The position numbers and the translations under genes are program-made. A stretch of DNA of 64,000 nucleotides from a bacterium (lineage in GTDB: Bacteria; Patescibacteriota; Patescibacteriia; JACPHY01), in contig JAUSKM010000015.1 in assembly GCA_030646955.1 (NCBI GenBank), positions 285-64,284 of the forward strand, read 5' to 3'. Shown piece by piece: positions 3,226 through 60,235 of this stretch (the stretch's first letter is position 1; every line of letters begins with the position of its first letter). A model generated the notes under the pieces. That model did no database searches, had not been told where the DNA came from, and saw only the letters and a program-made list of their open reading frames with translations.

Positions 3226-5157
3226 TCACCGCTTGAGCACGGCGATGTAGGCCTCCGGGGGGAGGTCAACACGGCCGGTGGCGCGCATGGCTTTCTTGCC
3301 TTTCTTCTGCTTCTCCAGGAGCTTCTTCTTGCGCGTAACGTCGCCGCCGTAGAGACCGGCAGTGACGTCCTTGCGGAGCGGCGAGATGCGGGCGCTGGCG
3401 ACAATCTTGCCACCGATCGCCGCCTGAATGCGCACCTCAAACTGGTGGCGCGGGATCACGTCCTTGAGCCGCTCGACGATCCGCCGCCCCACCTGCTGCG
3501 CTTCGTCCTCGTACACAATTGTCGCGAGCGATTCCTCTGGTTCGTCCACAACAAAAATGTCGAGGCGCCGCACGTTCGCCTCGCGGTGCTCGGAAATTTC
3601 GTAATTCATGGACGCGTACCCCTGGGAAACACTCTTGAGCCGATCATAAAAATCCACCAGCACCTTCGCAAGCGGCAGCTCGTACTTCAGGAGCGCGCGC
3701 CGTTGCCCCTCGATGCCGCCGGCAAGGTACTCCGTGGTGCGGTAGGTGCCGCGGTACTCCTGGCAGAGCTGCATGAGCCCGCCCACGTACTGCTCTGGCG
3801 TCACGATGTCCATGCGCACCCACGGCTCCTCAATTGCCGCGATGGACGACGGGTCCGGCAGCTCCTGCGGCGAACGGATGACTTCTCGCGCGCTGCTGTC
3901 CGCTTGGTGTTGCCGGCGCACCCAGTATGCAACACTCGGCACCGTCACCACCACGTCCATGTTGTGCTCGCGGATAAGCCGCTCCCGGAACACGTCCAGG
4001 TGGAGGAGGCCCAAGAATCCGCAGCGGAACCCCACGCCCAGTGCCTGCGAATGCTCCGGCTCCGCGACAAGCGCAGCATCGTTGAGGCGTAGCTGATCAA
4101 TGGCATCACGGAGCTGTTCCGTTTCATCCGAGTTCTTGGGGAACACGCCAGCGAACACCATGGGCCGCACGTCCTTGTACCCGGGGAGCGGCGCGGTTGC
4201 CGCGTACTTCGCGCCCGTCATAGTATCGCCAACGCGCACGCTTCGGATGTCCTTGAGGCCCGTCACGATGTATCCGATCTCCCCCGGCCCCACCTCGTCC
4301 GTCGCATAGAGCTTGGGGTTAAACGATCCCACCTCGCTGGCCTCTACCACCGTACCGGTGGTGAAGAATTTGAGTTTATCACCGCGCGCAACCGATCCGT
4401 CCACCACGCGCACATACGCGATGACGCCCCGAAAATCGTCGTACACAGAATCAAAAATGAGTGCGCGCAATCTCCGATCCCCCACCTCATCTTGAGGGGG
4501 GGGCGTCCGCACGGGTGCCGGTACCCGCTCCACCACCGCGTCGAGCAACATCGCAACGCCCTCGCCCGTCTTTCCGGAGACGGCAAGAATCTCCTCACGC
4601 GCGCATCCCAACAGCTCCATGATTTCCTGCGCCGTGCGCTCAACGTCCGCCGCCGGCAGATCAATTTTGTTGATCGCCGGAATAATGACGAGGTCCTGCT
4701 CCATCGCCAAGTACAGGTTCGCAATCGTCTGCGCCTGCACACCCTGCGTCGCATCTACGAGCAGGATTGCTCCCTCCACTGCCGCAAGCGAACGCGAGAC
4801 CTCGTACGTGAAGTCCACATGCCCGGGCGTGTCGATGAGGTGGAATATGTACTCCTCCTGATGATCCCCCACCTCCCGCTCGTCTGCGTCCGCCGGAGCG
4901 CGGAGGGAGGAGGGGCGAGGGGGGGTGGGCGTCCGCATCGTTCCGCCATGCGCGCCCAGCGTCCATCGCATGCGGACTGGCGCCAGCTTGATCGTAATCC
5001 CCCGCTCCTGCTCCAGGTCCATCTGGTCCAGCGTTTGCTGCTTCATGTCCCGGCTACTCACCGTTCCCGTGAGCTCCAACATCCGGTCCGCCAGCGTGGA
5101 TTTGCCGTGGTCAATGTGGGCGATGATGCAAAAATTGCGAATGGATGATGATTCCAT
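3226..5157 (-). CDS. lepA: Elongation factor 4 (LepA)
   Basis: MESSSIRNFCIIAHIDHGKSTLADRML, DTPGHVDF and NKIDLP GTPase motifs, with full-length LepA-like order to the C-terminus. Start trimmed from 5394 to the ATG at 5157. It contains an extra segment of about 30 aa before DTPGH (see findings). Confidence 0.95.
   Translation of the reverse strand: MESSSIRNFCIIAHIDHGKSTLADRMLELTGTVSSRDMKQQTLDQMDLEQERGITIKLAPVRMRWTLGAHGGTMRTPTPPRPSSLRAPADADEREVGDHQEEYIFHLIDTPGHVDFTYEVSRSLAAVEGAILLVDATQGVQAQTIANLYLAMEQDLVIIPAINKIDLPAADVERTAQEIMELLGCAREEILAVSGKTGEGVAMLLDAVVERVPAPVRTPPPQDEVGDRRLRALIFDSVYDDFRGVIAYVRVVDGSVARGDKLKFFTTGTVVEASEVGSFNPKLYATDEVGPGEIGYIVTGLKDIRSVRVGDTMTGAKYAATAPLPGYKDVRPMVFAGVFPKNSDETEQLRDAIDQLRLNDAALVAEPEHSQALGVGFRCGFLGLLHLDVFRERLIREHNMDVVVTVPSVAYWVRRQHQADSSAREVIRSPQELPDPSSIAAIEEPWVRMDIVTPEQYVGGLMQLCQEYRGTYRTTEYLAGGIEGQRRALLKYELPLAKVLVDFYDRLKSVSQGYASMNYEISEHREANVRRLDIFVVDEPEESLATIVYEDEAQQVGRRIVERLKDVIPRHQFEVRIQAAIGGKIVASARISPLRKDVTAGLYGGDVTRKKKLLEKQKKGKKAMRATGRVDLPPEAYIAVLKR
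4866..4930. repeat. G/C-tract element inside lepA
   Basis: cccccacctcccgc...gcggagggaggaggggcgagggggggtgggc. Translated in the lepA frame as RTPTPPRPSSLRAPADADEREVGD. Confidence 0.6.
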
Positions 5158-5200: not shown

Positions 5201-6802
5201 TCACCCTCGCGCCTCGTCTGCGCCACCAAAGGCACGGGGGACGGCGCGGAGGGCGTGACGACGGAGCGCGAGCGCAAGCGCGGTAATTTCATCGGATTTG
5301 AGGAGGATACCAACGGCAAGGTACGCCCCGAAGCCCAGGCCCCCTGCCAGGAAACCCTGCAACGCGATGCCGATGAATGTCTGTGTCCCCACAAGCGCGG
5401 CGATGCTGGGCTTCACCACCTGGATGACCACGCCCATGACGAGTGCAGCGATGAGGAATTTCCCGATGGCGATACCCGTACGCCGTCCATCCAGCCCGCC
5501 GGCGCGGCGACGCAATGCGACGAGGAGCGCGAGCGCCTGGACGATACCCGCGAGCGCCAACGCCAACGCGAGGCCCTGCGGACCAAATGTGCGACCCAGG
5601 AACCACGCAGCCGCGATGCCGAGCACATCCGCCGCCACGCTGATGACGAACGGCGTGCGCGTGTCCTCGAAGGCGTAAAACGCACGCGTCAAAAGCGGGA
5701 TGAGCATCGCAAAAAAGAGTCCAACGCCAAACGCCTCCACCGTTTCCAATGTTCGAACCGTATCCTCCCATCCAAACGCGCCAGCACCCAGGAGCACGCG
5801 GACGATCTGCGCTTTGAGTGCCAAGAGCATCACGACAGCAGGCAGCGCGAGGAGCGCGATCTGTCGAAACGTCGCAGAGAAATACTGCCGGAACTGTTCG
5901 ATGTCACCAGCAGCAACTGCGCTCGACAAGCGCGGGAATGCGGCGATGGCGAACGCGATGCCAATGAGCGCGATCGGCACATGTTGGATGTTCGCCGCAA
6001 ACGTAAACACCGCGAGCGATCCCGCGGCGAGCGTGGACGCAATGCCGGCGACGATGAGCAGCTGCACCTGCTGCGCGCCAAGCGATGCGACACGCGGGAG
6101 AAGGTTCACAAACAACAATCGCACCTCGCGATCGCGCCACGTTGGCGCCCACTGTACCCGCAGCCCCGTACGCGCCGCAGCCACCCATTGCATCGCAAGG
6201 TGCGCGGCAGCACCCAGCACCACGCCCCACGCGATTCCTACCGGGCCGAGCATCGGCGCCAGCGCGAGGACGCCGCCGATGATGCCAAGATTGTAGAGGA
6301 GCGGTGCCGCCGCAAACGCGAAGAAGCGCTCCTCTGCCTGCAATACGCTACCAATGACAGATGAGAGGCCTAGGAGTGCCGTCGCGATGAACAGGATGCG
6401 GCCAACCTGCACGGTGAGCGCAAGCTGCTCCGACGAAAACCCAGGCGCAATAGCCGCAAAGAGCGGCGTCGCCGCAAGTGCGCCAATGCTCCCACACAGC
6501 AGGAGGAGAAACGCGGCATTGGTGAACACCTGCGAGGCGAAACGATGTGCGCGGTCACGCCCACCCGCGCGCAGCCGAATAAAAATCGGCACGAACGCCG
6601 CGGAGAGCGCGGCGAGGCCAAGGAGGTTGAAGGCAAAATCCGGGATGCGGAATGCCGCGTAGTACGCGTCGAGTACCGACCCCGCACCAAACGTGGTGGC
6701 GAGGATGCGATCGCGCACGAGTCCCAGGATGCGGCTCGCAAGCGAGAGCGCTGCAATGAGCAGCGCGGAAGCGACGGTGGTTTGTCCCAAGCGCATAGGC
6801 AA
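5201..6802 (-). CDS. murJ: Lipid II flippase MurJ (MviN family)
   Basis: 533 aa polytopic membrane protein. The N-terminus SRILGLVRDRILATTFGAGSVLDAYYAAFRIPDF is typical of MurJ/MviN. Confidence 0.9.
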   Translation of the reverse strand: MPMRLGQTTVASALLIAALSLASRILGLVRDRILATTFGAGSVLDAYYAAFRIPDFAFNLLGLAALSAAFVPIFIRLRAGGRDRAHRFASQVFTNAAFLLLLCGSIGALAATPLFAAIAPGFSSEQLALTVQVGRILFIATALLGLSSVIGSVLQAEERFFAFAAAPLLYNLGIIGGVLALAPMLGPVGIAWGVVLGAAAHLAMQWVAAARTGLRVQWAPTWRDREVRLLFVNLLPRVASLGAQQVQLLIVAGIASTLAAGSLAVFTFAANIQHVPIALIGIAFAIAAFPRLSSAVAAGDIEQFRQYFSATFRQIALLALPAVVMLLALKAQIVRVLLGAGAFGWEDTVRTLETVEAFGVGLFFAMLIPLLTRAFYAFEDTRTPFVISVAADVLGIAAAWFLGRTFGPQGLALALALAGIVQALALLVALRRRAGGLDGRRTGIAIGKFLIAALVMGVVIQVVKPSIAALVGTQTFIGIALQGFLAGGLGFGAYLAVGILLKSDEITALALALRRHALRAVPRAFGGADEARG

Positions 6803-6820
6803 CTCCCATTGTACCGCACA

Positions 6821-6850
6821 ACACGCATCCGGCCGAAGCCGGATGCGTGT
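6821..6850. terminator. Intergenic 13-bp GC-rich hairpin between hpf and murJ
   Basis: acacgcatccggc cgaa gccggatgcgtgt, a perfect stem. The T-run is weak, so this is either a terminator or an attenuator. Confidence 0.5.
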
Positions 6851-6885
6851 TTGATGTATTGAGCCAGAAGCTAGCAGCTCGCAGC

Positions 6886-7260
6886 TTATGACGCTACTGC
6901 TTCCTCCGAAACACGCCGCGCGCTTGCTCCCGCGTGCATCCCCTGCATCGTACCGGCCACTCGGTGACGCTTGCGCATCTGAAGCACCAGTTTGTCCTTC
7001 GCGAGGTCAATCGCTTCGCGGAGCGTATGATCGTCCTCCTCCGCAAGCCACTTGTATGTATCAACCGTCAGCGTCAGGGATACCTTAAACGCCTTCTTCT
7101 TGGCAAAGCGCTCCGCCCGGAACGTCAGCAACGGCTCTTCTGTTCCTGCAGGGAGACGCAGCAACGCCCGCTCAATCGTCTTTGCCTTCACGACGAAATA
7201 CTGCCGGCAGAAATGCTGGTCAAACTCACCCACCTTCTTGTAGCTGTAGGAAACCTTCAT
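6886..7260 (-). CDS. hpf: Ribosome hibernation factor (HPF/RaiA family)
   Basis: MKVSYSYKK...FKVSLTLTVDTYKWLAEEDDHTLREAIDLAKDKLVLQMRKRH matches the HPF pattern (beta-alpha-beta core, then AIDxxxDKLxxQxxK). An alternative upstream ATG lies at 7275. Confidence 0.7.
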   Translation of the reverse strand: MKVSYSYKKVGEFDQHFCRQYFVVKAKTIERALLRLPAGTEEPLLTFRAERFAKKKAFKVSLTLTVDTYKWLAEEDDHTLREAIDLAKDKLVLQMRKRHRVAGTMQGMHAGASARRVSEEAVAS

Positions 7261-7422
7261 AGGATAGGCACTCATTACTACAGCGCGGGCCAGCCGTTTC
7301 TTTCATTTCCGCCGCCCGCGTCGCATGGACAACATACCCCGCCTGTGGAAAAACTGCAAGGAGGCCCCAAGATGCCAAAAATGGGGCGGTTCTGCGATGC
7401 CGATGATGCGGGAGGTACTTGC

Positions 7423-7815
7423 TCAATCATCAACGCGCGTATTGTTTCGTGTATCGCCGAGTACTCCGAGCGCCGCTGCTGCCATGAACAAACCAAAATC
7501 GCGCACGGCGAGATCCCCGCGTGCCACGGCAGCGAGAATGGTCAAAAGGTGAAGCGCGACAACCGCGGCAACGATACGCACTCGCCACCCCACCACCAGC
7601 AACACGCCGAGGAGCACCTCCGCCACACCCACCACGCGCAGGAACTGCACGGGATCCATCGGCAACAATCCGATCATCCACGGCGGAACAAATCCCAGCC
7701 ACGACACGGTATCTGCAATCTTGCCATATCCAAAGATGAGCAGCACTGCACCCAACCCCAAACGCAACAGCAATGCCGCAGCGCTGGGGCCCGTAAAACG
7801 AGAAAGCATCCTCAT
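7423..7815 (-). CDS. DoxX-family membrane protein
   Basis: MRMLSRFTGPSAAALLLRLGLGAVLLIFGYGKI...VAEVLLGVLLVVGWRVR: about 4 TM segments with DoxX-like composition. The track start at 7980 runs through a repeat unit, so the start was trimmed to the ATG at 7815. Confidence 0.7.
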   Translation of the reverse strand: MRMLSRFTGPSAAALLLRLGLGAVLLIFGYGKIADTVSWLGFVPPWMIGLLPMDPVQFLRVVGVAEVLLGVLLVVGWRVRIVAAVVALHLLTILAAVARGDLAVRDFGLFMAAAALGVLGDTRNNTRVDD

Positions 7816-7837
7816 ACTTTGACAATAAAATTGGTGC

Positions 7838-7868
7838 GTGTGAGATTGCTTCGCATGCTCGCAATGAC
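7838..7868. repeat. Single family-T repeat unit (TTGC/GCAA type)
   Basis: gtgtgagattgcttcgcatgctcgcaatgac. Its reverse complement is gtcattgcgagcatgcgaagcaatctcacac. Confidence 0.8.
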
Positions 7869-7924
7869 AATACTTAGGAATAAGTGGACTTAACATTTTC
7901 GACACCGTTTTCAAACACGGTCTC

Positions 7925-9187
7925 CTACGGCTTGTATAATTCATCGATGGCCGGCTCCCACACCGTGCAATGACTTGCACCGCCTATCGCGAACAGTTTT
8001 TTGTCGGGGTAGCGCTTTTTCAGCTCGCGAAACACATCGATTGCATGTTCGTCGCGAACAATATTCATGTCCCGCAAGACATCGCTGGTGACCCTTCGTT
8101 CACCGACCAACTGCGGCTCGGTCATTTCGATAATCCTGGCCCTATCTTCTTTCCTTAACTCCGGATCATCGAACCGTTTCACAAGCTCCGCCAAGGAGAA
8201 GCCCATATGCCTCTGCAGCGAGGCATCGATATTTTCATTCGTGAGTTCGATGCCTAAAGAAACTGCCTCTTCAACGCCGCCCCCCGACAAAGCAACACCA
8301 CTACGTCTGCGTATCTCGTCGGCGGAGGGCCTCACATTGGATTCATGGGGTTTATTTTCGTCATAGGATGCATGGGCCCTGCGTGCGGCATAGGTGACCA
8401 TCCAGTCGGTCACATCTTGTGGTCCGTATTTGTGCTCACCGGTGGTTTCATCTTTCAACTTAAGGACCTCGCGAATCTGCTCGATTGTACGCGTATCCCA
8501 AGTCCGGACCTCTTTCCCTTCCCGCATCGCCAATAAAGCAATGTACGGCTCCTCCCCTTTTTCCGCGATAACCCGCGCGGGATCTTTTTTCAGGATTTCG
8601 CTCAACGACTCCCCCGGGTAGAAGTCCTCAAGCGAAAGTCCGCCTTCGATCAGCACGATGTCCGGATCTTCTTGCATCAACGCATCGACCGTGGGTTGCA
8701 TCGGCTCAACTGTATTTGCGTGCGCAAAACCACGTCCAATGAACTCCGCACCGTTTTCGGAACGTTTCTTGATCTCGTTGATTTCCTTACCGCTTTCGCG
8801 GGCCGCCTTCTCTTCCTCCGGCGTCAAAAGAAGGAGATGCAATTTCTCGATCTCAAGTGCATCCAAGCGCGCGCCACGATTACGCTCCACACGCACTTGA
8901 TCGTCGACCATATGCCCGTGTATTGCCTGCTTGGATTCTTTACTAATAATTCCTAGTGCCGCCTCCAATCCATCCACTTCTCCCTGATAATCCTCTTCTA
9001 GTGTTGCGCGCATTTCAGATTCGTCTTTCGAGGAATCCGCAGCATGAGACAGAAGACGAATATCTTGATCGATTTTCGTGATCCGCTCCTTGCGCACCTG
9101 GGCAATGGTCTCCGGGGTTTTCGCTGCAACTTTTTCCGGAACAGCCCCCATCGAATCCATTTTCGGCAGTTCTTTTCCCGAGGACAT
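7925..9187 (-). CDS. Hypothetical protein, possible TraB/Tiki/ChaN-superfamily domain with an N-terminal coiled-coil extension
   Basis: 420-aa ORF in a visibly lower-GC stretch. Candidate superfamily motifs occur in order: RGFAH (GxxH), IVLIEGG (E), NIVRDEHAI (RD), FAIGGASH (GxxH). Motif-level inference only. Confidence 0.6.
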   Translation of the reverse strand: MSSGKELPKMDSMGAVPEKVAAKTPETIAQVRKERITKIDQDIRLLSHAADSSKDESEMRATLEEDYQGEVDGLEAALGIISKESKQAIHGHMVDDQVRVERNRGARLDALEIEKLHLLLLTPEEEKAARESGKEINEIKKRSENGAEFIGRGFAHANTVEPMQPTVDALMQEDPDIVLIEGGLSLEDFYPGESLSEILKKDPARVIAEKGEEPYIALLAMREGKEVRTWDTRTIEQIREVLKLKDETTGEHKYGPQDVTDWMVTYAARRAHASYDENKPHESNVRPSADEIRRRSGVALSGGGVEEAVSLGIELTNENIDASLQRHMGFSLAELVKRFDDPELRKEDRARIIEMTEPQLVGERRVTSDVLRDMNIVRDEHAIDVFRELKKRYPDKKLFAIGGASHCTVWEPAIDELYKP

Positions 9188-9205
9188 AAAAATACAACAA
9201 CCGCA

Positions 9206-9286
9206 TCAAGTCCGTTTTTCTCTCGTGCACAAACGCAACAGAAACGCCGCGATCTCGGAGCCCGTAAAGCGAAAAAACATCCTCAT
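9206..9286 (-). pseudogene. Duplicated, truncated doxX 5' end
   Basis: ATG at 9286 reads MRMFFRFTGSEIAAFLLRLCTREKRT*, compared with the doxX N-terminus MRMLSRFTGPSAAALLLRLG. Roughly 70 nt (9230-9300) matches 7761-7830 at an estimated 80 percent by eye, including the upstream leader. Confidence 0.55.
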
Positions 9287-9414
9287 ACTCTGACAATCAT
9301 CTTCGTCACCGCGTCCTGAAATACGCGAAACGCCTTCCGCCACTCTTTCTTGTGCGTGTATTGATCGTCATTGCTGACACGTACGCAGTACTGACACCCA
9401 CACCAATGATACCA

Positions 9415-9852
9415 TCAGTGTGCCTTCGGGTACGCGCAGTTTACCATCCACTGCACCCCGAACCGATCCCGAACACTCCCGTAGTAGTCACCCCATGGCT
9501 GGTCTGCAATATCCATCTCCACCGTGCCGCCGTCTGCAAGCGCATGGAAGATGCGATCCGCCTCCTCCTTGCTGTCGGGATGAATGGAAATGTACGCGTT
9601 ATTTCCCTGCACCAACTTCTGCCCAAGCGACGGCAGCGTGTCCGAAGCCATGAGCTTATCGTCGCCAACTGGAAGGCAAATGTGCATCATCCCGTTCTCC
9701 TCCTCTTTGGGAATGTGTACGCCTTCCATCGGCATGTCCTTGAACCGCACCCTGGAGCTGAACTCCCCGCCAAAGATGGAACGGTAAAACGTGAACGCCT
9801 CCTCTGCATTCCCGGCAAAGTTGAGATACGTGTTGAGTTTTATATTCTCCAT
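9415..9852 (-). CDS. VOC/glyoxalase-fold protein (PhnB-like)
   Basis: MENIKLNTYLNFAGNAEEAFTFYRSIFGG...MHICLPVGDDKLMASD...IADQPWGDYYGSVRDRFGVQWMV is the typical PhnB/VOC pattern. Start trimmed from 9981 (which runs through repeats) to the ATG at 9852. Confidence 0.8.
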   Translation of the reverse strand: MENIKLNTYLNFAGNAEEAFTFYRSIFGGEFSSRVRFKDMPMEGVHIPKEEENGMMHICLPVGDDKLMASDTLPSLGQKLVQGNNAYISIHPDSKEEADRIFHALADGGTVEMDIADQPWGDYYGSVRDRFGVQWMVNCAYPKAH

Positions 9853-9862
9853 TTTTCCATCT

Positions 9863-9942
9863 GTCATTTCGAACGCAGCGAGAAATCTCACACGATCCAA
9901 TAACTGCCGACACGCGAGATTGCTTCGCGGACTCGCAATGAC
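9863..9942. repeat. Inverted pair of family-T units (TTTC type + TTGC type)
   Basis: gtcatttcgaacgcagcgagaaatctcacacg (9863-9894) and cacgcgagattgcttcgcggactcgcaatgac (9911-9942). Confidence 0.8.
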
Positions 9943-9977
9943 AGTACGTATGTGATGCCGTGAAATTGCAATCGTTA

Positions 9978-11294
9978 TCATCCTTCGTACGCCCGCTGCA
10001 GCTGCTCCACATCAAACTTCTTCATCGCGAGAAATGCCTTCGTCACACGCGCACGACGTTCTGGATCCTCATCGCGCATCATCGCGTCCATTGCCGTGGG
10101 CACGATCTGCCAGGAAACGCCGTACGTGTCCTTGAGCCATCCGCATTGCTCTGCTTCCGGCACGGCAGAGAGCCGCTCCCAAAAATAATCGATCTCCGCC
10201 TGCGTATCGCACCGTATCAGGAACGAGAATGCCTCATTGAACGTAAACGCATGCTTATGCGCGCTGTCCATCGCTATAAACTGCTGCCCTACCAACGCAA
10301 ACTCTCCGTACATCACCGTCCCCTCCTTATCCGGCGCAGCATTCGCACCGTACCTACTCATATCGCCCACCTTCGCATCGCGAAATACTGACGCATAGAA
10401 CCGCATCGCTTCCTCTGCTTTCCCGCACCGCTCTCCAACGAACAGAAGCGATGGGGTGATGCGCTGGATACTCTTGCGACCGTCCATGCATATGAGCTGC
10501 CACGAGAGGCCATACCGGTCTTGCACCCATCCGTACCGCGTACTGAACGGATATGCACCAAGCTCCATCAGTACTTTCCCGCCATCCGCAAGCTGCTCCC
10601 AGAGCGCGTCCACCTCCGCAGGCGTTGCGCACGCGACCATGAATGAGATTGCCGGAGTAAATTGGAAGTACGGCCCTGCGCTGATGCACATGAACTCCTG
10701 CCCCGAGAGCACAAAGGACACAACATCTACCGCGCCAGAAGGCGTCCCCTGCAACGTAGTTACATACTCCACGCGCGAATCCGGAAAAAGCGACGTGTAA
10801 AATTCCGCCGCCTCTCGCGCCTCCTTGTCGTACCAAAGGTGAGGCACAATTTTTTGCATAGTGGCAACCTCCACCGTGCCGCGCTCGACGTACCGCTTGA
10901 AATTGGTGAGGATCGCCTGCCAACCATCCCGCTGCATCTGCTCCGGATTCAGCGACTCCGGATCAAACGTCTCGGTCACGTATACGTGCTCCAGCATCTG
11001 CGTGAACGTCACGCGCACATGCCGACCGTCATCCATGTCGTACTCGATCAATGCATACTTGCGAACGGCAGCATGCGTTCCCGAAAAATCAAACCTTGCG
11101 CTGCCATCCTTTGCAGCCATCACCGTCGTAAATCGTCCACCCACACGTACATCATTCTCCGCCGACGGCGCCTCCTACTCATCCGACGCAAACGCCCAGC
11201 CGACAATGTGCTCCGACTGCGTAAAACACTCCCACACCCTCGCCATGGGAGCGCGCACATCCACGTCCACTGTGATTGGCTGTTGTTTGTTCAT
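9978..11294 (-). pseudogene. SRPBCC(AHSA1-like) + 2x VOC (PF06983-like) fusion gene interrupted by an in-frame TAG
   Basis: From the ATG at 11294: MNKQQPITVDVDVRAPMARVWECFTQSEHIVGWAFASDE-TAG(11177-11175)[25 protein letters not shown]. The frame then continues through two VOC repeats ([17 protein letters not shown]...; [22 protein letters not shown]...). The same frame is used on both sides of the stop. Confidence 0.7.
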
Positions 11295-11541: not shown

Positions 11542-12378
11542 TCAATCACCTGAGAGAAACTCGGCCCATGCCGCACACTCCTCGAGGTCGTCGGTATCGA
11601 TGAGGCGGTCGCAATCGTTGTCGACGTGATCATTGCACACCTCTTCATTGCACGCGGGATCGCAGGTGAGCAACGCTACAGGAGCATCACACTCCCAAAA
11701 CCCCTCCTGCAACAATCCGTCGTTCTCCCATATGCAGATCACGCCGATCCAATCACCGTCGTCCGTCACCCCGTCGCAGTCGTTGTCGACGCCATCGCAG
11801 ATTTCCATGGGACATGCTGCGGTCGAATCGAACACACAATCGCCATCATCCCAATCCACCATGCCATCGCAGTCGTTGTCGGCACGATCATGACACAACT
11901 CGACATTCTCCTCACAGGACGGACCTCCAGCGATAGGGAGCCCGCATGAGAGCGTTGTGTGTGGCACGCCCTCTGTACCGGGAGCCCCGCACGTACGCAG
12001 GCCTGCATTCACTGCATCCCAGTACTCCATGTAACACGCCTGCTCTTCCCAAGGACCATTGTCCGTGATACCGTCGCAGTCGTTATCGATACTATCGCAG
12101 CGCTCCTCAGAGCACTCGGTCGCGTCATCGCCGGAATCATCATCCGCGCTGACGGCATCATCGTCGGATGTGTCGCCGTCGTCGTTTGCGGTTGCTTGGG
12201 AGTCATCGTCGGTGATGACTCCATCGTCGTCCGCTGCCATCGTATCGTCATCGACGGAAGTTGCGACGCTATCATCGTCTCCAACCGGAAAACTTCCTTC
12301 CGGCATATCGCTCCCGCACGCCTGCACTGCCGTTATGAGCGCCGTGATCATGGAAAGAACCAACCATACGGTACGCAT
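11542..12378 (-). CDS. Asp/Cys-rich lipoprotein with four DNDCDG-type putative metal-binding repeats
   Basis: MRTVWLVLSMITALITAVQACG has a signal peptide plus lipobox. An acidic low-complexity region follows, then CDSIDNDCDGITD, CHDRADNDCDGMVD, CDGVDNDCDGVTD and CNDHVDNDCDRLID. There is a strong SD (aaggaggtgcgg) upstream of the ATG at 12378. Confidence 0.75.
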   Translation of the reverse strand: MRTVWLVLSMITALITAVQACGSDMPEGSFPVGDDDSVATSVDDDTMAADDDGVITDDDSQATANDDGDTSDDDAVSADDDSGDDATECSEERCDSIDNDCDGITDNGPWEEQACYMEYWDAVNAGLRTCGAPGTEGVPHTTLSCGLPIAGGPSCEENVELCHDRADNDCDGMVDWDDGDCVFDSTAACPMEICDGVDNDCDGVTDDGDWIGVICIWENDGLLQEGFWECDAPVALLTCDPACNEEVCNDHVDNDCDRLIDTDDLEECAAWAEFLSGD

Positions 12379-12404
12379 CCGCACCTCCTTCTTTGTTCCC
12401 CGCA

Positions 12405-12433
12405 AATATACATCCAAGCAGCCTCTCCGTCAA
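12405..12433 (-). promoter_or_regulatory. Sigma-70-like promoter for the lipoprotein gene
   Basis: Minus strand: TTGACG (12433-12428), a 17-nt spacer, then TATATT (12410-12405). This is about 27 nt upstream of the start codon. Confidence 0.5.
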
Positions 12434-12591: not shown

Positions 12592-13260
12592 CTAAAACTT
12601 CCTGACCTTCATGATGCAAGCATCGTCCACGCCTCCCTTTGCGCTCGCATACATCGCGTAGAGAAAGGCATCTCGGTCGATTGCATGTTGGCCGCCGAAT
12701 TCCTCACCCCAATCGGGGTCGTTGACGTAGACATTCTCTTGATCGATGCCGGTCACGACATTGAAATGAATGCTGAATCTTGGCGGGAGGTCAGTATTGT
12801 GAAGAAACCAATGTGTGAGAGGAATAAATACGGGCCGCTCTTCGTTTACTTCCACTTCGATATCACTCATGAGCGGAACCCGCGGCGTGATAGTGCCGCC
12901 TGCATCCACAAATTGAAGAAAGTGATCGAGAGCGATCGGATCACATTCTCCTTTCATGAGCGGTTTGAGCGACCAGAGATACCTCTTGAGCTCATCCGTA
13001 TTCTTGAACGATGAAAAGAGCGAAAAAAGGGATGGGTGCATCGTAATAATCTCGACCGAAAAACCTCGCTTAAGCAAGTACGTTCCGACTTGCGGGGTAA
13101 CTGTCCCCCACGAGTACGTTCCGAGTTCCTTTTTCATCTCATCAAAGGAAAACGACACCTTGTAGTACGCAAGCAACATCGCAAGACATGCGGGACCACA
13201 ATCGCTGGATCCTTCAGCTTGTCGAACAAGAGGAACAGATAGTTTCGTCATACTACCCAC
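12592..13260 (-). CDS. Stand-alone C39-like (papain-fold) cysteine peptidase
   Basis: VPLVRQAEGSSDCGPACLAMLLAYY gives the Q...C nucleophile motif, with HFNVVTGID...VYVNDP providing downstream His/Asp. The stretch is lower in GC. The track start is GTG at 13260; the first ATG is at 13251. Confidence 0.75.
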   Translation of the reverse strand: MGSMTKLSVPLVRQAEGSSDCGPACLAMLLAYYKVSFSFDEMKKELGTYSWGTVTPQVGTYLLKRGFSVEIITMHPSLFSLFSSFKNTDELKRYLWSLKPLMKGECDPIALDHFLQFVDAGGTITPRVPLMSDIEVEVNEERPVFIPLTHWFLHNTDLPPRFSIHFNVVTGIDQENVYVNDPDWGEEFGGQHAIDRDAFLYAMYASAKGGVDDACIMKVRKF

Positions 13261-14368: not shown

Positions 14369-16171
14369 CTACTCCATAATGGGCGCGGCTGCGGTGCCTC
14401 GTGCCGGTTCGCTCGCTGCGATGACGCGGGAAGAAGCGAACACCTCCAGGGCGGCGTCAACGGTGGTGTCGCCGGTGGCGGGGCGGCAGGCGCGGTCGAG
14501 CTCTTCAAAGTGCTCCACCGCAATCGCGACGGGATCCAGGTGGAGGGGCGTGCCGACGATGCGTGCGATGGCGCTGGTGAGCGGCTCTATGATGCCGGGC
14601 TGCCGCACTTTCTCCGCGTGGAGCTTGTAGCGGAAGCCGATGGTGAGCGTCCCGTCTGCAATGCGTTGCGGGCGACCGCCTTCCAGGAGGTACGGGATGG
14701 AGCGGTTGACGTCCGCGAGATCGCGGATGATGTGGTGCCATTGTTGCTGGACTTTCGAGAGCGCCTCGGTGGCGCTCTGGATGACGGTGGATGTTGGAAG
14801 TTGCTCCCTCCTCCCGGCGGAAGGGGGAGGAATAAAACGCACCCCCTCTGACTCCCCCTCTTGAAGAGGGGGAGGAACCGGATCGGATGTATCTGTTACC
14901 GTCGTTGGGAGTTTGATGCTTGCAGGGGTACGAGCGCGCGAGGCGTGTTGGGGGGTACGGGCTGCACCGCCGGTGGTGGCGGGTGGAGCATCGTCGTCAT
15001 TGCTCCGCGATGCGTCTCGCTGAGACGAGGCGAGCTGCGCGGGATTCATTTTGCCTGGTGATGCGCTCGCTGCGGGCGCTGCGGGAACGAATGGGGAGCG
15101 CGCGAGGAGCGTAAGGACGGCAACCTCGAGGAGGAAGAACGGACGGTCTGCACGACCGATGCGATCCAGGAGTTCCGTGAACATGCGAAGCGCGAACACC
15201 TGTGCCGTCGCAACGGCACCTTGCTGGGCGGCAGCGCGTGCGGCGCTGCGCAGCTCGTTGATGATGTCGCGACAAAACGCATCCGCATCGCATCCCTCGG
15301 CTGATGCAGCATCGAGCGTGGCCAGGGCCAATGCGGTGTCGCCGGCACCAACCGCGCGAAGCAGCGTCTGGACATGCACCATGTTTGATTGCGGGAGCAC
15401 GAGCGCGGCAACATCGGCCGTCACTCGCTTCCCGCCCACCGCCATGAGCTGCCCCAACAGGGATTCTGCGTCACGCACGGAGCCGTCTGCCGCGCGGACT
15501 ACCTGCGCGAGCACCTCGTCATCCACGGCAACATCCTCTACCCCTGCAAGCATCCGGAGCCGCTCCGTGAGCGTCCCATCCCCCACGCGCCGGAACGTAA
15601 AATGCTGGCACCGTGACGTGATCGTCTCCGGCACCTTCTGCATTTCCGTTGTCGCAAGGATGAAGTGGACGTGCTCTGGCGGCTCCTCCAGCGTCTTGAG
15701 GAGCGCATTAAAGGACGCCGTCGAGAGCATGTGCACCTCGTCAATGATGTACACCTTCTTTGCTGCAACTGCGGGGGCGATACGCACCGCCTCGATGATG
15801 TACTCACGCACCTTCTCCACCTGCGTGTTGGATGCCGCATCAATCTCCACGACATCCATGCAACGTCCTGCGGTAATTTCCTCGCACCGGATGCAGGCGT
15901 TACAAGGCACGGGAAGTGTTTGCTTCGACCGGTGCTTCGCGCGAGTTTCTTCGTCGCTCCGCTCCTCGGAATGACGAGGAGCGAGGCAATTCACCGCCTT
16001 CGCCAGGAGCCGCGCGGTGGTGGTCTTTCCAACGCCGCGCGGACCGGAGAAAAGGTACGCATGCGCAACACGACCCGCCGCGATAGCCGCGACGAGCGTG
16101 CGCGTGACATGCTCCTGCCCCACGACGTCCTCAAACGTCTGCGGGCGATGCTTACGATACAGTACGGGCAT
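14369..16171 (-). CDS. dnaX: DNA polymerase III subunit gamma/tau
   Basis: MPVLYRKHRPQTFEDVVGQEHV, Walker A GPRGVGKTT, DEVHML, TSRCQ. Start trimmed to the ATG at 16171. It carries two repeat-derived segments (features at 14805 and 15941). Confidence 0.9.
   Translation of the reverse strand: MPVLYRKHRPQTFEDVVGQEHVTRTLVAAIAAGRVAHAYLFSGPRGVGKTTTARLLAKAVNCLAPRHSEERSDEETRAKHRSKQTLPVPCNACIRCEEITAGRCMDVVEIDAASNTQVEKVREYIIEAVRIAPAVAAKKVYIIDEVHMLSTASFNALLKTLEEPPEHVHFILATTEMQKVPETITSRCQHFTFRRVGDGTLTERLRMLAGVEDVAVDDEVLAQVVRAADGSVRDAESLLGQLMAVGGKRVTADVAALVLPQSNMVHVQTLLRAVGAGDTALALATLDAASAEGCDADAFCRDIINELRSAARAAAQQGAVATAQVFALRMFTELLDRIGRADRPFFLLEVAVLTLLARSPFVPAAPAASASPGKMNPAQLASSQRDASRSNDDDAPPATTGGAARTPQHASRARTPASIKLPTTVTDTSDPVPPPLQEGESEGVRFIPPPSAGRREQLPTSTVIQSATEALSKVQQQWHHIIRDLADVNRSIPYLLEGGRPQRIADGTLTIGFRYKLHAEKVRQPGIIEPLTSAIARIVGTPLHLDPVAIAVEHFEELDRACRPATGDTTVDAALEVFASSRVIAASEPARGTAAAPIME
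14805..14874. repeat. Two adjacent G/C-tract hairpins inside the dnaX 3' half
   Basis: ctccctcctcccggcggaagggggagga and ctccccctcttgaagagggggag. Translated as PPLQEGESEGVRFIPPPSAGRRE. Confidence 0.65.
15941..15975. repeat. Family-T repeat unit inside the dnaX zinc-module region
   Basis: The reverse complement gtcattccgaggagcggagcgacgaagaaactcgcg is near-identical to the intergenic unit gtcattgcgaggagcgaagcgacgaagcaatcccgg at 24924-24961. Translated as RHSEERSDEETRA. Confidence 0.75.
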
Positions 16172-24704: not shown

Positions 24705-24803
24705 ACTACTGCGCAGTCATCCACAGTATAGCACGCTGGGCAGAGTACGCACCGTAGAAATAATTTCTGAACGGGATAGAGGACGTTGTGGGTACCCTTG
24801 ATA

Positions 24804-24961
24804 GCCGGAATTGCCACGTCGAGGACTCCTCGCAATGACAATACCGGTGTCATTGCGAGTCCGCGAAGCAATCCCGGCCATGTGCAGCACTGTGCTGCGT
24901 CGCCATCGCAAGAGTCCTGCTATGGCCGGGATTGCTTCGTCGCTTCGCTCCTCGCAATGAC
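24804..24961. repeat. Three family-T units, two of which form a long hairpin
   Basis: gccggaattgccacgtcgaggactcctcgcaatgac (24804-24839) faces gtcattgcgagtccgcgaagcaatcccggcc (24849-24879). A third, inverted unit ggccgggattgcttcgtcgcttcgctcctcgcaatgac lies at 24924-24961. Confidence 0.85.
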
Positions 24962-24998
24962 AACGTGGGCGTGACGAGGGGAATGACGGCTTCACGTA

Positions 24999-26239: not shown

Positions 26240-26310
26240 ACAGTCATACATGGCCACCTCTCCCCCTCTAGCTCCCCCTCCCCCCATGAGTACGTGCGGG
26301 GAGGGGGAGG
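26240..26310 (+). repeat. About 72-bp G/C-tract element, long form, copy A
   Basis: acagtcatacatggccacctctccccctctagctccccctccccccatgagtacgtgcggggagggggagg aligns along its length with 45806-45878 and with the reverse complement of 60164-60235. Confidence 0.85.
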
Positions 26311-26417
26311 ACAAGAACATCGGAGTCGCTGGAGACACTTTTCGCATCCGCCACAAATGGAAGCGCCAGCGCGATACCAAGCATCGCGAGGATCAACACC
26401 TTCGTACGACGTTGCAT
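26268..26417 (-). CDS. Possible 49-aa secreted peptide in the dnaK-dnaJ spacer
   Basis: MQRRTKVLILAMLGIALALPFVADAKSVSSDSDVLVLPLPARTHGGRGS has a signal-peptide-like N-terminus, but the last third is encoded by the repeat element. Speculative. Confidence 0.2.
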   Translation of the reverse strand: MQRRTKVLILAMLGIALALPFVADAKSVSSDSDVLVLPLPARTHGGRGS

Positions 26418-29776: not shown

Positions 29777-29857
29777 TCCTTTGCGAGTCCGTGAGGGCGC
29801 AGCAATCTCTCTGCCTGATTGGCCGGGATTACCACGTCGCGGACTCCTCGCAATGAC
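29777..29857. repeat. Two family-T units (one degenerate, one inverted)
   Basis: cctttgcgagtccgtgagggcgcagcaatctctc and ggccgggattaccacgtcgcggactcctcgcaatgac. Confidence 0.7.
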
Positions 29858-29943
29858 ACAAACATACGAAATTCTACCTCTCAAAAAGAACGAGACCCGC
29901 ACTTTCGTACGGGTCTCAGGTAATACTCCTCGAAGTTTGCGGC

Positions 29944-45656: not shown

Positions 45657-45729
45657 AGTGCGCTCCTTGATGCTCGGTGCTCGGAATCTGGGCTCTTCGC
45701 CCTTTTCTGTCGCTCATGCTCTGTTTGAT

Positions 45730-45878
45730 CCCCTCCCTCCCCGCGCGTACTCGCGGGGGGAGGGAGGGTTAGGGAGGGAGAGGTGGGACGGAATGGCAAC
45801 ATGGTACAGCCCATCCATAGCCACCTCTCCCCCTCCTGCTCCCCCTCTCCCCACGAGTACGTGCGGGGAGGGGGAGGG
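45730..45878. repeat. Inverted pair of long G/C-tract elements (about 150-bp composite palindrome)
   Basis: 45730-45803 (cccctccctccccgcgcgtactcgcggggggagggaggg...) is in the same orientation as 60164-60235. 45806-45878 (acagcccatccatagccacctctccccctcctgctccccctctccccacgagtacgtgcggggagggggaggg) is in the opposite orientation. Confidence 0.85.
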
Positions 45879-45885
45879 TAAGGAG

Positions 45886-48084: not shown

Positions 48085-48242
48085 CGTCACCTTCGAGCGA
48101 TACTTCACTTCCGTCATTTCGAGCGCAGCGAGAAATCTCACACGCAATACTCTATCGAACACGATACGGTTGACATGTACTGCTTACGAATGTTTCTCAA
48201 CCCCCACATCATGTGAGATTCCTCGGCCGACCTCGGAATGAC
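48085..48242. repeat. Family-T units upstream of mraY (one degenerate, one TTTC type, one inverted TTCC type)
   Basis: gtcatttcgagcgcagcgagaaatctcacacg (48113-48144) and tgtgagattcctcggccgacctcggaatgac (48212-48242). Confidence 0.8.
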
Positions 48243-60071: not shown

Positions 60072-60163
60072 ACCGTCTCCATTCTCGCACACGAACGGCG
60101 CCAAAGCAACTCCTCAAAAAAGTAGGTTCTTCCGGCTTTCGTGTCGCCGAGTACGCTTCTTAT

Positions 60164-60235
60164 CCTCCCCCTCCCCGCACGTACTCGTGGGGGGAGGGGG
60201 AGCGAGAGGGGGAGGGGTGGCTATGGATGGGCTGT
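60164..60235 (-). repeat. About 72-bp G/C-tract element, long form, copy C
   Basis: The reverse complement acagcccatccatagccacccctccccctctcgctccccctccccccacgagtacgtgcggggagggggagg is nearly identical to 45806-45878. Confidence 0.85.

Follow-up and report, generated by a model that had tools for sequence, protein, structure and literature searches.

A gene for a predicted TIKI/TraB-like enzyme lies between an intact doxX and a diverged stub of the doxX 5' end in a Patescibacteria genome

The start of the doxX gene was found to be present twice in a 64,000-nucleotide stretch (hereafter the window) of contig JAUSKM010000015.1, GenBank assembly GCA_030646955.1, from a bacterium of the Patescibacteriota. 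One copy opens the intact doxX gene, and the other is a relic that ends after codon 19 and lies upstream of an open reading frame (ORF) of 420 amino acids (aa), here called ORF420. We regard the general description of this locus, namely an acquired gene for a TIKI-like enzyme accompanied by a dead doxX stub and an intact doxX, as somewhat probable. The more specific proposal, that ORF420 was imported by recombination with homology on one side, is advanced tentatively, as a possible route that falls short of a probable one.

Results

Two copies of the doxX start flank ORF420

A preliminary description of the window had proposed that the doxX 5' end is duplicated upstream, with an identity estimated at 80%. 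Formal alignment bore this out, far above chance: positions 7759-7835 and 9230-9306 form a direct repeat of 77 nucleotides (nt) without gaps, with 78% identity and a spacing of 1471 (repeat search). The local alignment scored 44, as compared to 14.9 +/- 1.65 (maximum of 20) for shuffled queries run against both strands of the whole window, which places it approximately 18 standard deviations above the shuffles. When the 400-nt flanks of ORF420 were compared, the shuffles reached 11.1 +/- 1.5 (maximum of 16) against the same score of 44. A degenerate 38-nt pattern common to both copies matched twice in the 64 kb window, with no matches expected. On the minus strand, the copies cover positions -20 to +57 relative to the first ATG, i.e., approximately 20 nt of leader and doxX codons 1-19, and their N-terminal readings are MRMLSRFTGPSAAALLLRL in doxX and MRMFFRFTGSEIAAFLLRL in the relic. 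Seventeen substitutions separate the two copies; 8 of the 19 codons differ, six non-synonymously and two synonymously, and there are no insertions or deletions (indels). The copies have identical blocks of 9-12 nt (AGTATGAGGATG, TTTACGGGC and CTGTTGCGTTTG), the longest identical run being 12 nt. The inner limit of the similarity is sharp, right after CTGTTGCGTTTG (codon 19), and the outer limit is the start of a palindromic repeat of a family that we call T. No similarity was detected beyond the 77 nt, the two copies being preceded by unrelated DNA, and no further doxX remnants were detected within the insert.

After the break, the relic reads CTREKRT followed by TGA (9208-9206), and the ATG of ORF420 is located at 9187. 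Both positions agree with those given earlier, as does the content between the copies, which consists of ORF420 (7925-9187) and a T-family repeat (7830/7842-7876). The intact doxX matched Pfam PF07681 with 36.8 bits (gathering cut-off of 23.6) and is full length, since alignments with its homologues (137-148 aa) take in 93-98% of it. The Logan assembly of SRR13727527 (L004) was 100% identical across 3260 nt, corresponding to window positions 6613-9872 with both copies included. Since this separate contig shows the identical arrangement, the latter is no assembly quirk of the source record.

The relic ORF (9343-9206) is in the same frame as ORF420 (9187-7925), with the TGA and six codons between them, which has a one-in-three chance of occurring. 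The common frame is probably a coincidence, because TGA is the normal stop codon in doxX and in the gene for VOC145, a 145-aa VOC protein encoded upstream. A fusion of the relic ORF with ORF420 through UGA recoding was rejected, as TGA closes both doxX and VOC145 where the stop would be expected from the lengths of their homologues.

ORF420 is a predicted member of the TIKI/TraB superfamily

No match to ORF420 was obtained in Pfam, NCBIfam, PADLOC or PHROGs, and ORF420 together with seven close homologues gave nothing against PF01963 (TraB_PrgY_gumN; gathering score of 26.8 bits) even at E <= 10. Distant family members reached 18.6-24.6 bits (E 3e-5 to 2e-3) with the same model, which is sub-threshold and covers the C-terminal motif only. 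Because no Pfam or NCBIfam model matches, ORF420 is, as judged from its sequence, not a PF01963 member as now defined. The family is small: eight homologues were found among 5.8 billion clustered proteins, a profile search identified 92 representatives among 1.84 billion, and a metagenome scan with the eight-sequence alignment recovered two loci only. The start codon of ORF420 is backed by the conserved N-termini MSxK(D/E)LPK of homologues from other contexts.

The AlphaFold2 model of ORF420 (eight sequences; predicted local distance difference test score of 83.4, predicted template modelling score of 0.77) is confident and has three long N-terminal helices, at residues 28-119 or, as also delimited, about 28-131, and an alpha/beta domain from residue ~135. 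The N-terminal coiled-coil half of about 170 aa that had been put forward earlier has to be revised to this shorter helical region. The conserved core of the family starts at residue ~115-121, and the part in front of it is modular: it is helical in ORF420, P0002, P0006 and P0007, and it is replaced by a short CxxC module in P0003, P0004 and P0005. In the model, the alpha/beta domain has a parallel beta-sheet core with flanking helices, as in the TIKI fold. Besides the top structural match, which was the same chain in Foldseek, five other TIKI-superfamily structures were among the top 60, namely 2rad (Ere/Bcr-like), 2g5g (ChaN), 6xcq (EreC), 5t09 (HopBA1) and 5w6l (RRSP).

The active site of the TIKI fold consists of 2His/2Glu, and the members of the superfamily have been listed (PMC6254334). 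The sequence of ORF420 appears to contain the corresponding His/Glu and R(D/N) residues, in the order G153-x-x-H156 / E181 / E212 / R378-D379 / G403-x-x-H406. The ordered GxxH / E / RD / GxxH motifs, which had been read from the single sequence, held across the family: in an alignment of 40 sequences (down to 19% identity), G153, E181, E212, W230, R378, G403 and H406 were invariant, and H156 and D379 were conserved in at least 90%. According to the model, each motif is located after a predicted beta-strand or within a long C-terminal helix. The GxxH/E/E/RD/GxxH residues and the 2His/2Glu site are the likeness to the TIKI/TraB/PrgY/GumN, Ere and ChaN proteins (PF01963 and relatives; PMC6254334). 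The ORF420 family differs from them in its size, in having no match to Pfam, NCBIfam or PDB sequences, in a helical insertion of ~130 residues between the E and RD motifs and in its interchangeable N-terminal modules. The predicted structure and the motifs support, at the superfamily level, the view that ORF420 represents an unannotated family inside the TIKI/TraB superfamily; the earlier TraB/Tiki guess is upheld at this level, which the sub-threshold matches of the distant members also support, and ORF420 is not placed in PF01963. No membrane anchor or signal peptide was recognised in ORF420 by eye, and we predict a soluble enzyme of the His/Glu hydrolase type, either a protease or an esterase.

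ORF420 lies in a variable region upstream of doxX

In line with the earlier claim of a lower GC content, ORF420 has a GC content of 52.3%, as compared to 61.3% for the window. Its GC content at third codon positions (GC3) is 57.7%, with 65-79% in the neighbouring genes, and both values are the lowest in the neighbourhood. Homologues of ORF420 were located in seven neighbourhoods (L001, L002, L003, L005/L006, L045 and L046), which are unrelated to each other and in which no doxX, T unit or flanks in common with the present locus were found. Several of these homologues have an intrinsic terminator of their own. The homologue with 82% nucleotide identity is encoded on a contig of 46% GC, as opposed to 61% here. 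In L005, positions 1650-2925, directly upstream of the ORF420 homologue, contain three tandem modules of ~440 nt, each of which has a palindrome inside it and a small ORF of 70-84 aa.

Two loci with doxX orthologues (L043 and L044; 55-56% identity) have kept the HPF gene downstream and have neither ORF420 nor VOC genes upstream. Only a rhomboid gene is found upstream of doxX in both of them, with dnaX in addition in L043, giving the order dnaX - rhomboid - doxX - ... - HPF. The gap between dnaX and doxX in the window comprises 6.6 kb of other genes, which are not present in L043 or L044. Thousands of proteins from different phyla, including those of the archaeal Methanoperedens, are homologous to VOC145 at 73-80% identity. 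The order of AHSA1, large VOC and small VOC genes recurs elsewhere, and doxX was never next to it in the four closest VOC145 contexts. As regards the question raised in the preliminary description of whether doxX adjoins the VOC gene in relatives, these loci answer it in part: L043 and L044 lack VOC genes, and the VOC145-doxX adjacency was not seen in any of the four contexts. VOC145 and the AHSA1-VOC gene (9978-11294) form a horizontally spread two-gene module. The AHSA1/VOC/VOC sequences suggest a recent horizontal transfer, since VOC145 is 73-80% identical across phyla, while core genes reach at most ~40%. MurJ, for instance, showed no more than 41% identity to any species-representative genome, the best matches being metagenome-assembled genomes (MAGs) of Patescibacteria and Berkelbacteria, and the source organism is probably an uncultivated Candidate Phyla Radiation bacterium to which nothing sequenced so far is closely related.

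Upstream of doxX, the window thus presents a variable patchwork of acquired genes. That ORF420 is one of them is supported indirectly, because the contexts of its homologues are unrelated, its GC content is the lowest and the VOC genes upstream are also horizontally spread. The earlier claim of an inserted gene is upheld to this extent by the homologue contexts, the GC content and the doxX-orthologue loci; no empty site was found in the collections searched.

An in-frame TAG (11175-11177, minus strand) was noted inside the AHSA1/SRPBCC-VOC fusion gene (~11294-9978), at a position at which we take Trp to be usual in family members. It is either a nonsense mutation, which would make the gene a pseudogene, or a sequencing error. 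Together with the doxX stub, this codon shows signs of decay upstream of doxX. The same variable region between dnaX and doxX encodes an Asp-rich protein of 291 aa that looks secreted and has Cys motifs of the MopE type, in the form of DNDCDG repeats (11542-12417), and a 222-aa C39-like cysteine peptidase (12592-13260).

Table 1. Features of the doxX-ORF420 locus, in order of transcription
Feature	Position in window	Strand	Remarks
AHSA1-VOC gene	~11294-9978	-	First in transcription order
Inverted pair of T-family units	9862-9950	-	Between the two VOC genes; repeat search
VOC145	9415-9852	-	145-aa PhnB/YjdN-like VOC protein; adjoins the relic on its upstream side; family match
Spacer, 108 nt	Between VOC145 and upstream repeat copy	-	
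Upstream repeat copy (doxX 5' relic)	9230-9306	-	~20 nt leader and codons 1-19, MRMFFRFTGSEIAAFLLRL; 78% identity to 7759-7835
Post-break sequence	9206-9229	-	Seven unrelated codons (CTREKRT) and TGA; without similarity to the remaining doxX
Spacer, 18 nt	9188-9205	-	From relic stop to ORF420 ATG
ORF420	7925-9187	-	Predicted: soluble, helical N-terminus and TIKI/TraB-superfamily alpha/beta hydrolase-like domain (~135-420)
Spacer, 48 nt	7877-7924	-	3' of ORF420 stop; short hairpin GAGACCGTGTTTGAAAACGGTGTC without U-run
T-family palindromic unit	7830-7876	-	TGTCATTGCGAG...GCGAAGCAATCTCACACG..CCAAT; abuts downstream repeat copy; repeat search
Downstream repeat copy	7759-7835	-	Working doxX leader and codons 1-19; alignment
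Intact doxX	7423-7815	-	130 aa from first ATG (NCBI annotation 128 aa); Pfam DoxX, E 6e-9
HPF-like gene	7275-6886	-	Downstream of doxX; followed by murJ and lepA

Origin of the repeat pair

Homology-facilitated illegitimate recombination joins incoming DNA through one homologous anchor and one illegitimate junction; it can leave a partial, diverged duplicate on the anchor side, and it needs no recombinase gene or terminal repeats. To our knowledge, it is undocumented in Patescibacteria; in natural transformation of Acinetobacter, S. pneumoniae and P. stutzeri, it was reportedly described by de Vries and Wackernagel in 2002 and by Prudhomme et al. in 2002. An event of this kind at doxX would have started with the uptake of DNA carrying ORF420, the T unit and doxX from a diverged relative. 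On the side of doxX, this DNA would have crossed over by homology; its other end would have been joined illegitimately, at codon 19/20 of the recipient doxX. The two repeat copies would then be orthologous alleles from two lineages: the upstream one (9230-9306) would have been left as a dead stub cut after codon 19, and the downstream one (7759-7835) would have been joined to the rest of the gene, with doxX remaining intact. ORF420 would now occupy a place within what were codons 1-20 of doxX, ahead of the conserved pair formed by doxX and HPF. Such an import may explain the 22% divergence, the lack of indels and the preserved frame, because both copies would have been working alleles until the event, and it may also account for the sharp inner boundary and for the coincidence of the outer boundary with the T unit. 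For the 22% divergence, such an import is an explanation at least as good as duplication in situ. The locus resembles known cases of this recombination in having no recombinase gene and no terminal repeats; it differs from them in that the donor, the anchor crossover and a junction microhomology were not seen.

The copies might instead have arisen in place, by a duplicative insertion at doxX codon 19/20 whose repair duplicated ~71-77 bp, after which the upstream copy decayed neutrally to 78% while doxX stayed under selection. That the insert is bracketed exactly by direct repeats agrees with such an event, as does the dominance of non-synonymous changes in the relic. Moreover, L002, an 8.2-kb JGI contig, has a 26-nt direct repeat of unrelated sequence on either side of its ORF420 homologue (4629-4654 and 5910-5935; 85% identity; score of 18 versus 10.5 +/- 1.3 for shuffles), and no more than these two copies were present on the contig. 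Bacterial pseudogenes, however, show a deletion bias, and 17 substitutions with zero indels would be unusual for a neutral stub; neutral decay of this duration should also have drawn the GC3 of ORF420 towards that of the host. Transposons and insertion sequences are characterised by identical target duplications of 2-15 bp, inverted repeats and a transposase, whereas the repeat here is 77 nt long at 78% identity, far longer than any target duplication made by a transposase. Neither terminal inverted repeats nor a transposase were found on the insert, in which ORF420 is the only ORF with family support, and no flanking repeat was seen at five other homologue loci. On balance, we consider duplication in situ unlikely. 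A small circle with its own diverged doxX 5' end as attachment site could also have integrated, in a Campbell-type or site-specific manner, thereby regenerating doxX and displacing the original start. The flanking repeats are in register, so that recombination anywhere in them restores one intact doxX ORF, and the identical 9-12 nt blocks could act as a core. Phage 21 and e14, which integrate in E. coli icd, carry a diverged replacement 3' end, an integrase and tens of kb. The doxX locus is like them in its diverged terminus duplicate, intact gene and displaced stub, but it involves the 5' end and a single 1.26-kb gene, with no integrase. No recombinase, integrase or relaxase was detected in the 1.39-kb insert and the 10 kb surrounding it, the ~7 kb to each side likewise being free of recombinases, and no ORF420 homologues were found in viral contigs, plasmids or phages; of the features of integrative elements, the direct repeats were therefore present, but a recombinase and a homologue in a mobile-element record were not. 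The homologues elsewhere lack comparable flanks, except for the short L002 repeat, and an identity of 12 nt, the longest run here, is too short for efficient RecA recombination. Circle integration appears decidedly improbable to us.

It is more doubtful still that the relic remains from an older tandem duplication of the whole doxX gene, in which the body of the upstream copy was later deleted or overwritten on the arrival of ORF420. Although L043 and L044 carry two DoxX genes in tandem, and the divergence of the copies is high, the second DoxX in these loci is located downstream and is a very dissimilar paralogue (MSLLQPLLVYSDWGLVVLRVVAG...). In addition, the similarity takes in ~20 nt of leader outside the coding sequence, no database homologue comes as near to the resident doxX as the relic does, and the insert holds no other doxX remnant. 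Equally doubtful is the broader idea that genes of the ORF420 family are passed among Patescibacteria-like genomes as naked single-gene cassettes, independently of a recombinase or with one acting in trans, and duplicate tens of target bases; it is suggested by the direct repeats at two of the seven loci (77 nt here and 26 nt at L002). If it were true, landing at a 5' end would give the cassette the expression signals of the resident gene, and the duplication would keep that gene alive. Chance similarity or an assembly artefact can hardly be entertained, given the distance of the score from the shuffles and the identical, separately assembled contig; an assembler would not mis-join copies that are 78% identical. 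As to the direction and mechanism of the event, we infer import from a diverged relative in preference to duplication in situ and circle integration.

Several results weigh against the account of the locus given here. The searches yielded no empty site and no donor type (ORF420-T-doxX lacking the relic); among 5.8 billion proteins, the nearest doxX outside the source record is 57% identical, and L043 and L044 are too distant to serve as an empty site. The GC content of the ORF420 homologues follows that of the host (0.42-0.60), so the arrival was not obviously very recent everywhere. The ratio of six non-synonymous to two synonymous changes is as compatible with neutral pseudogene decay as with two functional alleles that have a poorly conserved N-terminus. 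A consensus scan of the gene strand between 6800 and 10100 revealed no sigma-70-like promoter or intrinsic terminator. Profile searches of PDB sequences with ORF420 gave no match, and the TraB link is based on structure prediction and motifs, with no sequence-profile match.

Expression of ORF420 and doxX

No Rfam match at E <= 1 was obtained in 6800-10100, and the folding energies of the leader RNA were no better than those of shuffles. The ATG of ORF420 is located 42 nt behind the break point. ORF420 is probably transcribed from the old promoter of the doxX leader or by read-through from VOC145, and the expression of doxX would depend on its own copy of the leader or on transcription running through ORF420 and the T unit. 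From the geometry of the locus, capture of the doxX promoter and leader by ORF420 is plausible.

Repeat families in the window

Family T is a multi-copy imperfect palindrome with the canonical form GGGATTGCTTCGTCGCTTCGCTCCTCGCAATGACA at 24928-24964. Copies were located at 7830-7876, 9862-9950, ~24800-24965 and 29797-29858, and possibly at 1256, 24029 and 48110-48144, often as inverted pairs. A T-family unit was also present in another Patescibacteria MAG (L007, 821-904), and none was found at the ORF420 homologues elsewhere. Family T is like repetitive extragenic palindromic (REP) and miniature inverted-repeat transposable element (MITE)-like repeats in consisting of short imperfect palindromes in multiple copies, mostly intergenic or 3'-terminal and sometimes arranged as inverted pairs; it differs in that no associated transposase was seen. 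A T-like unit, GTCATTCCGAGGAGCGGAGCGACGAAGAAACTC, was observed in frame inside dnaX (16198-14369, minus strand) at ~15935-15975, where it adds '...PRHSEERSDEETRAKHRSKQ...' near the zinc module. A second repeat family consists of G/C-rich palindromes (CCTCTCCCCCTC...GTACGTGCGGGGAGGGGGAGG) at 26245-26315, 45728-45882 and 60162-60220, with 81-89% identity.

Discussion

Gene gain has left a clean, datable-looking scar at doxX, in a group about whose ways of acquiring genes little is understood. Among the Patescibacteria, genomes are small, classical mobile elements are few, and DNA uptake is likely. The scar is well preserved and conceptually ordinary, and it does not overturn current understanding. 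With ORF420, the locus adds a small new family within a known enzyme superfamily. This unannotated TIKI/TraB branch, with its active-site residues intact and its N-terminal modules swappable, could enter the family databases. For the organism, the relic indicates that a resident gene can survive when a new gene enters right at its beginning.

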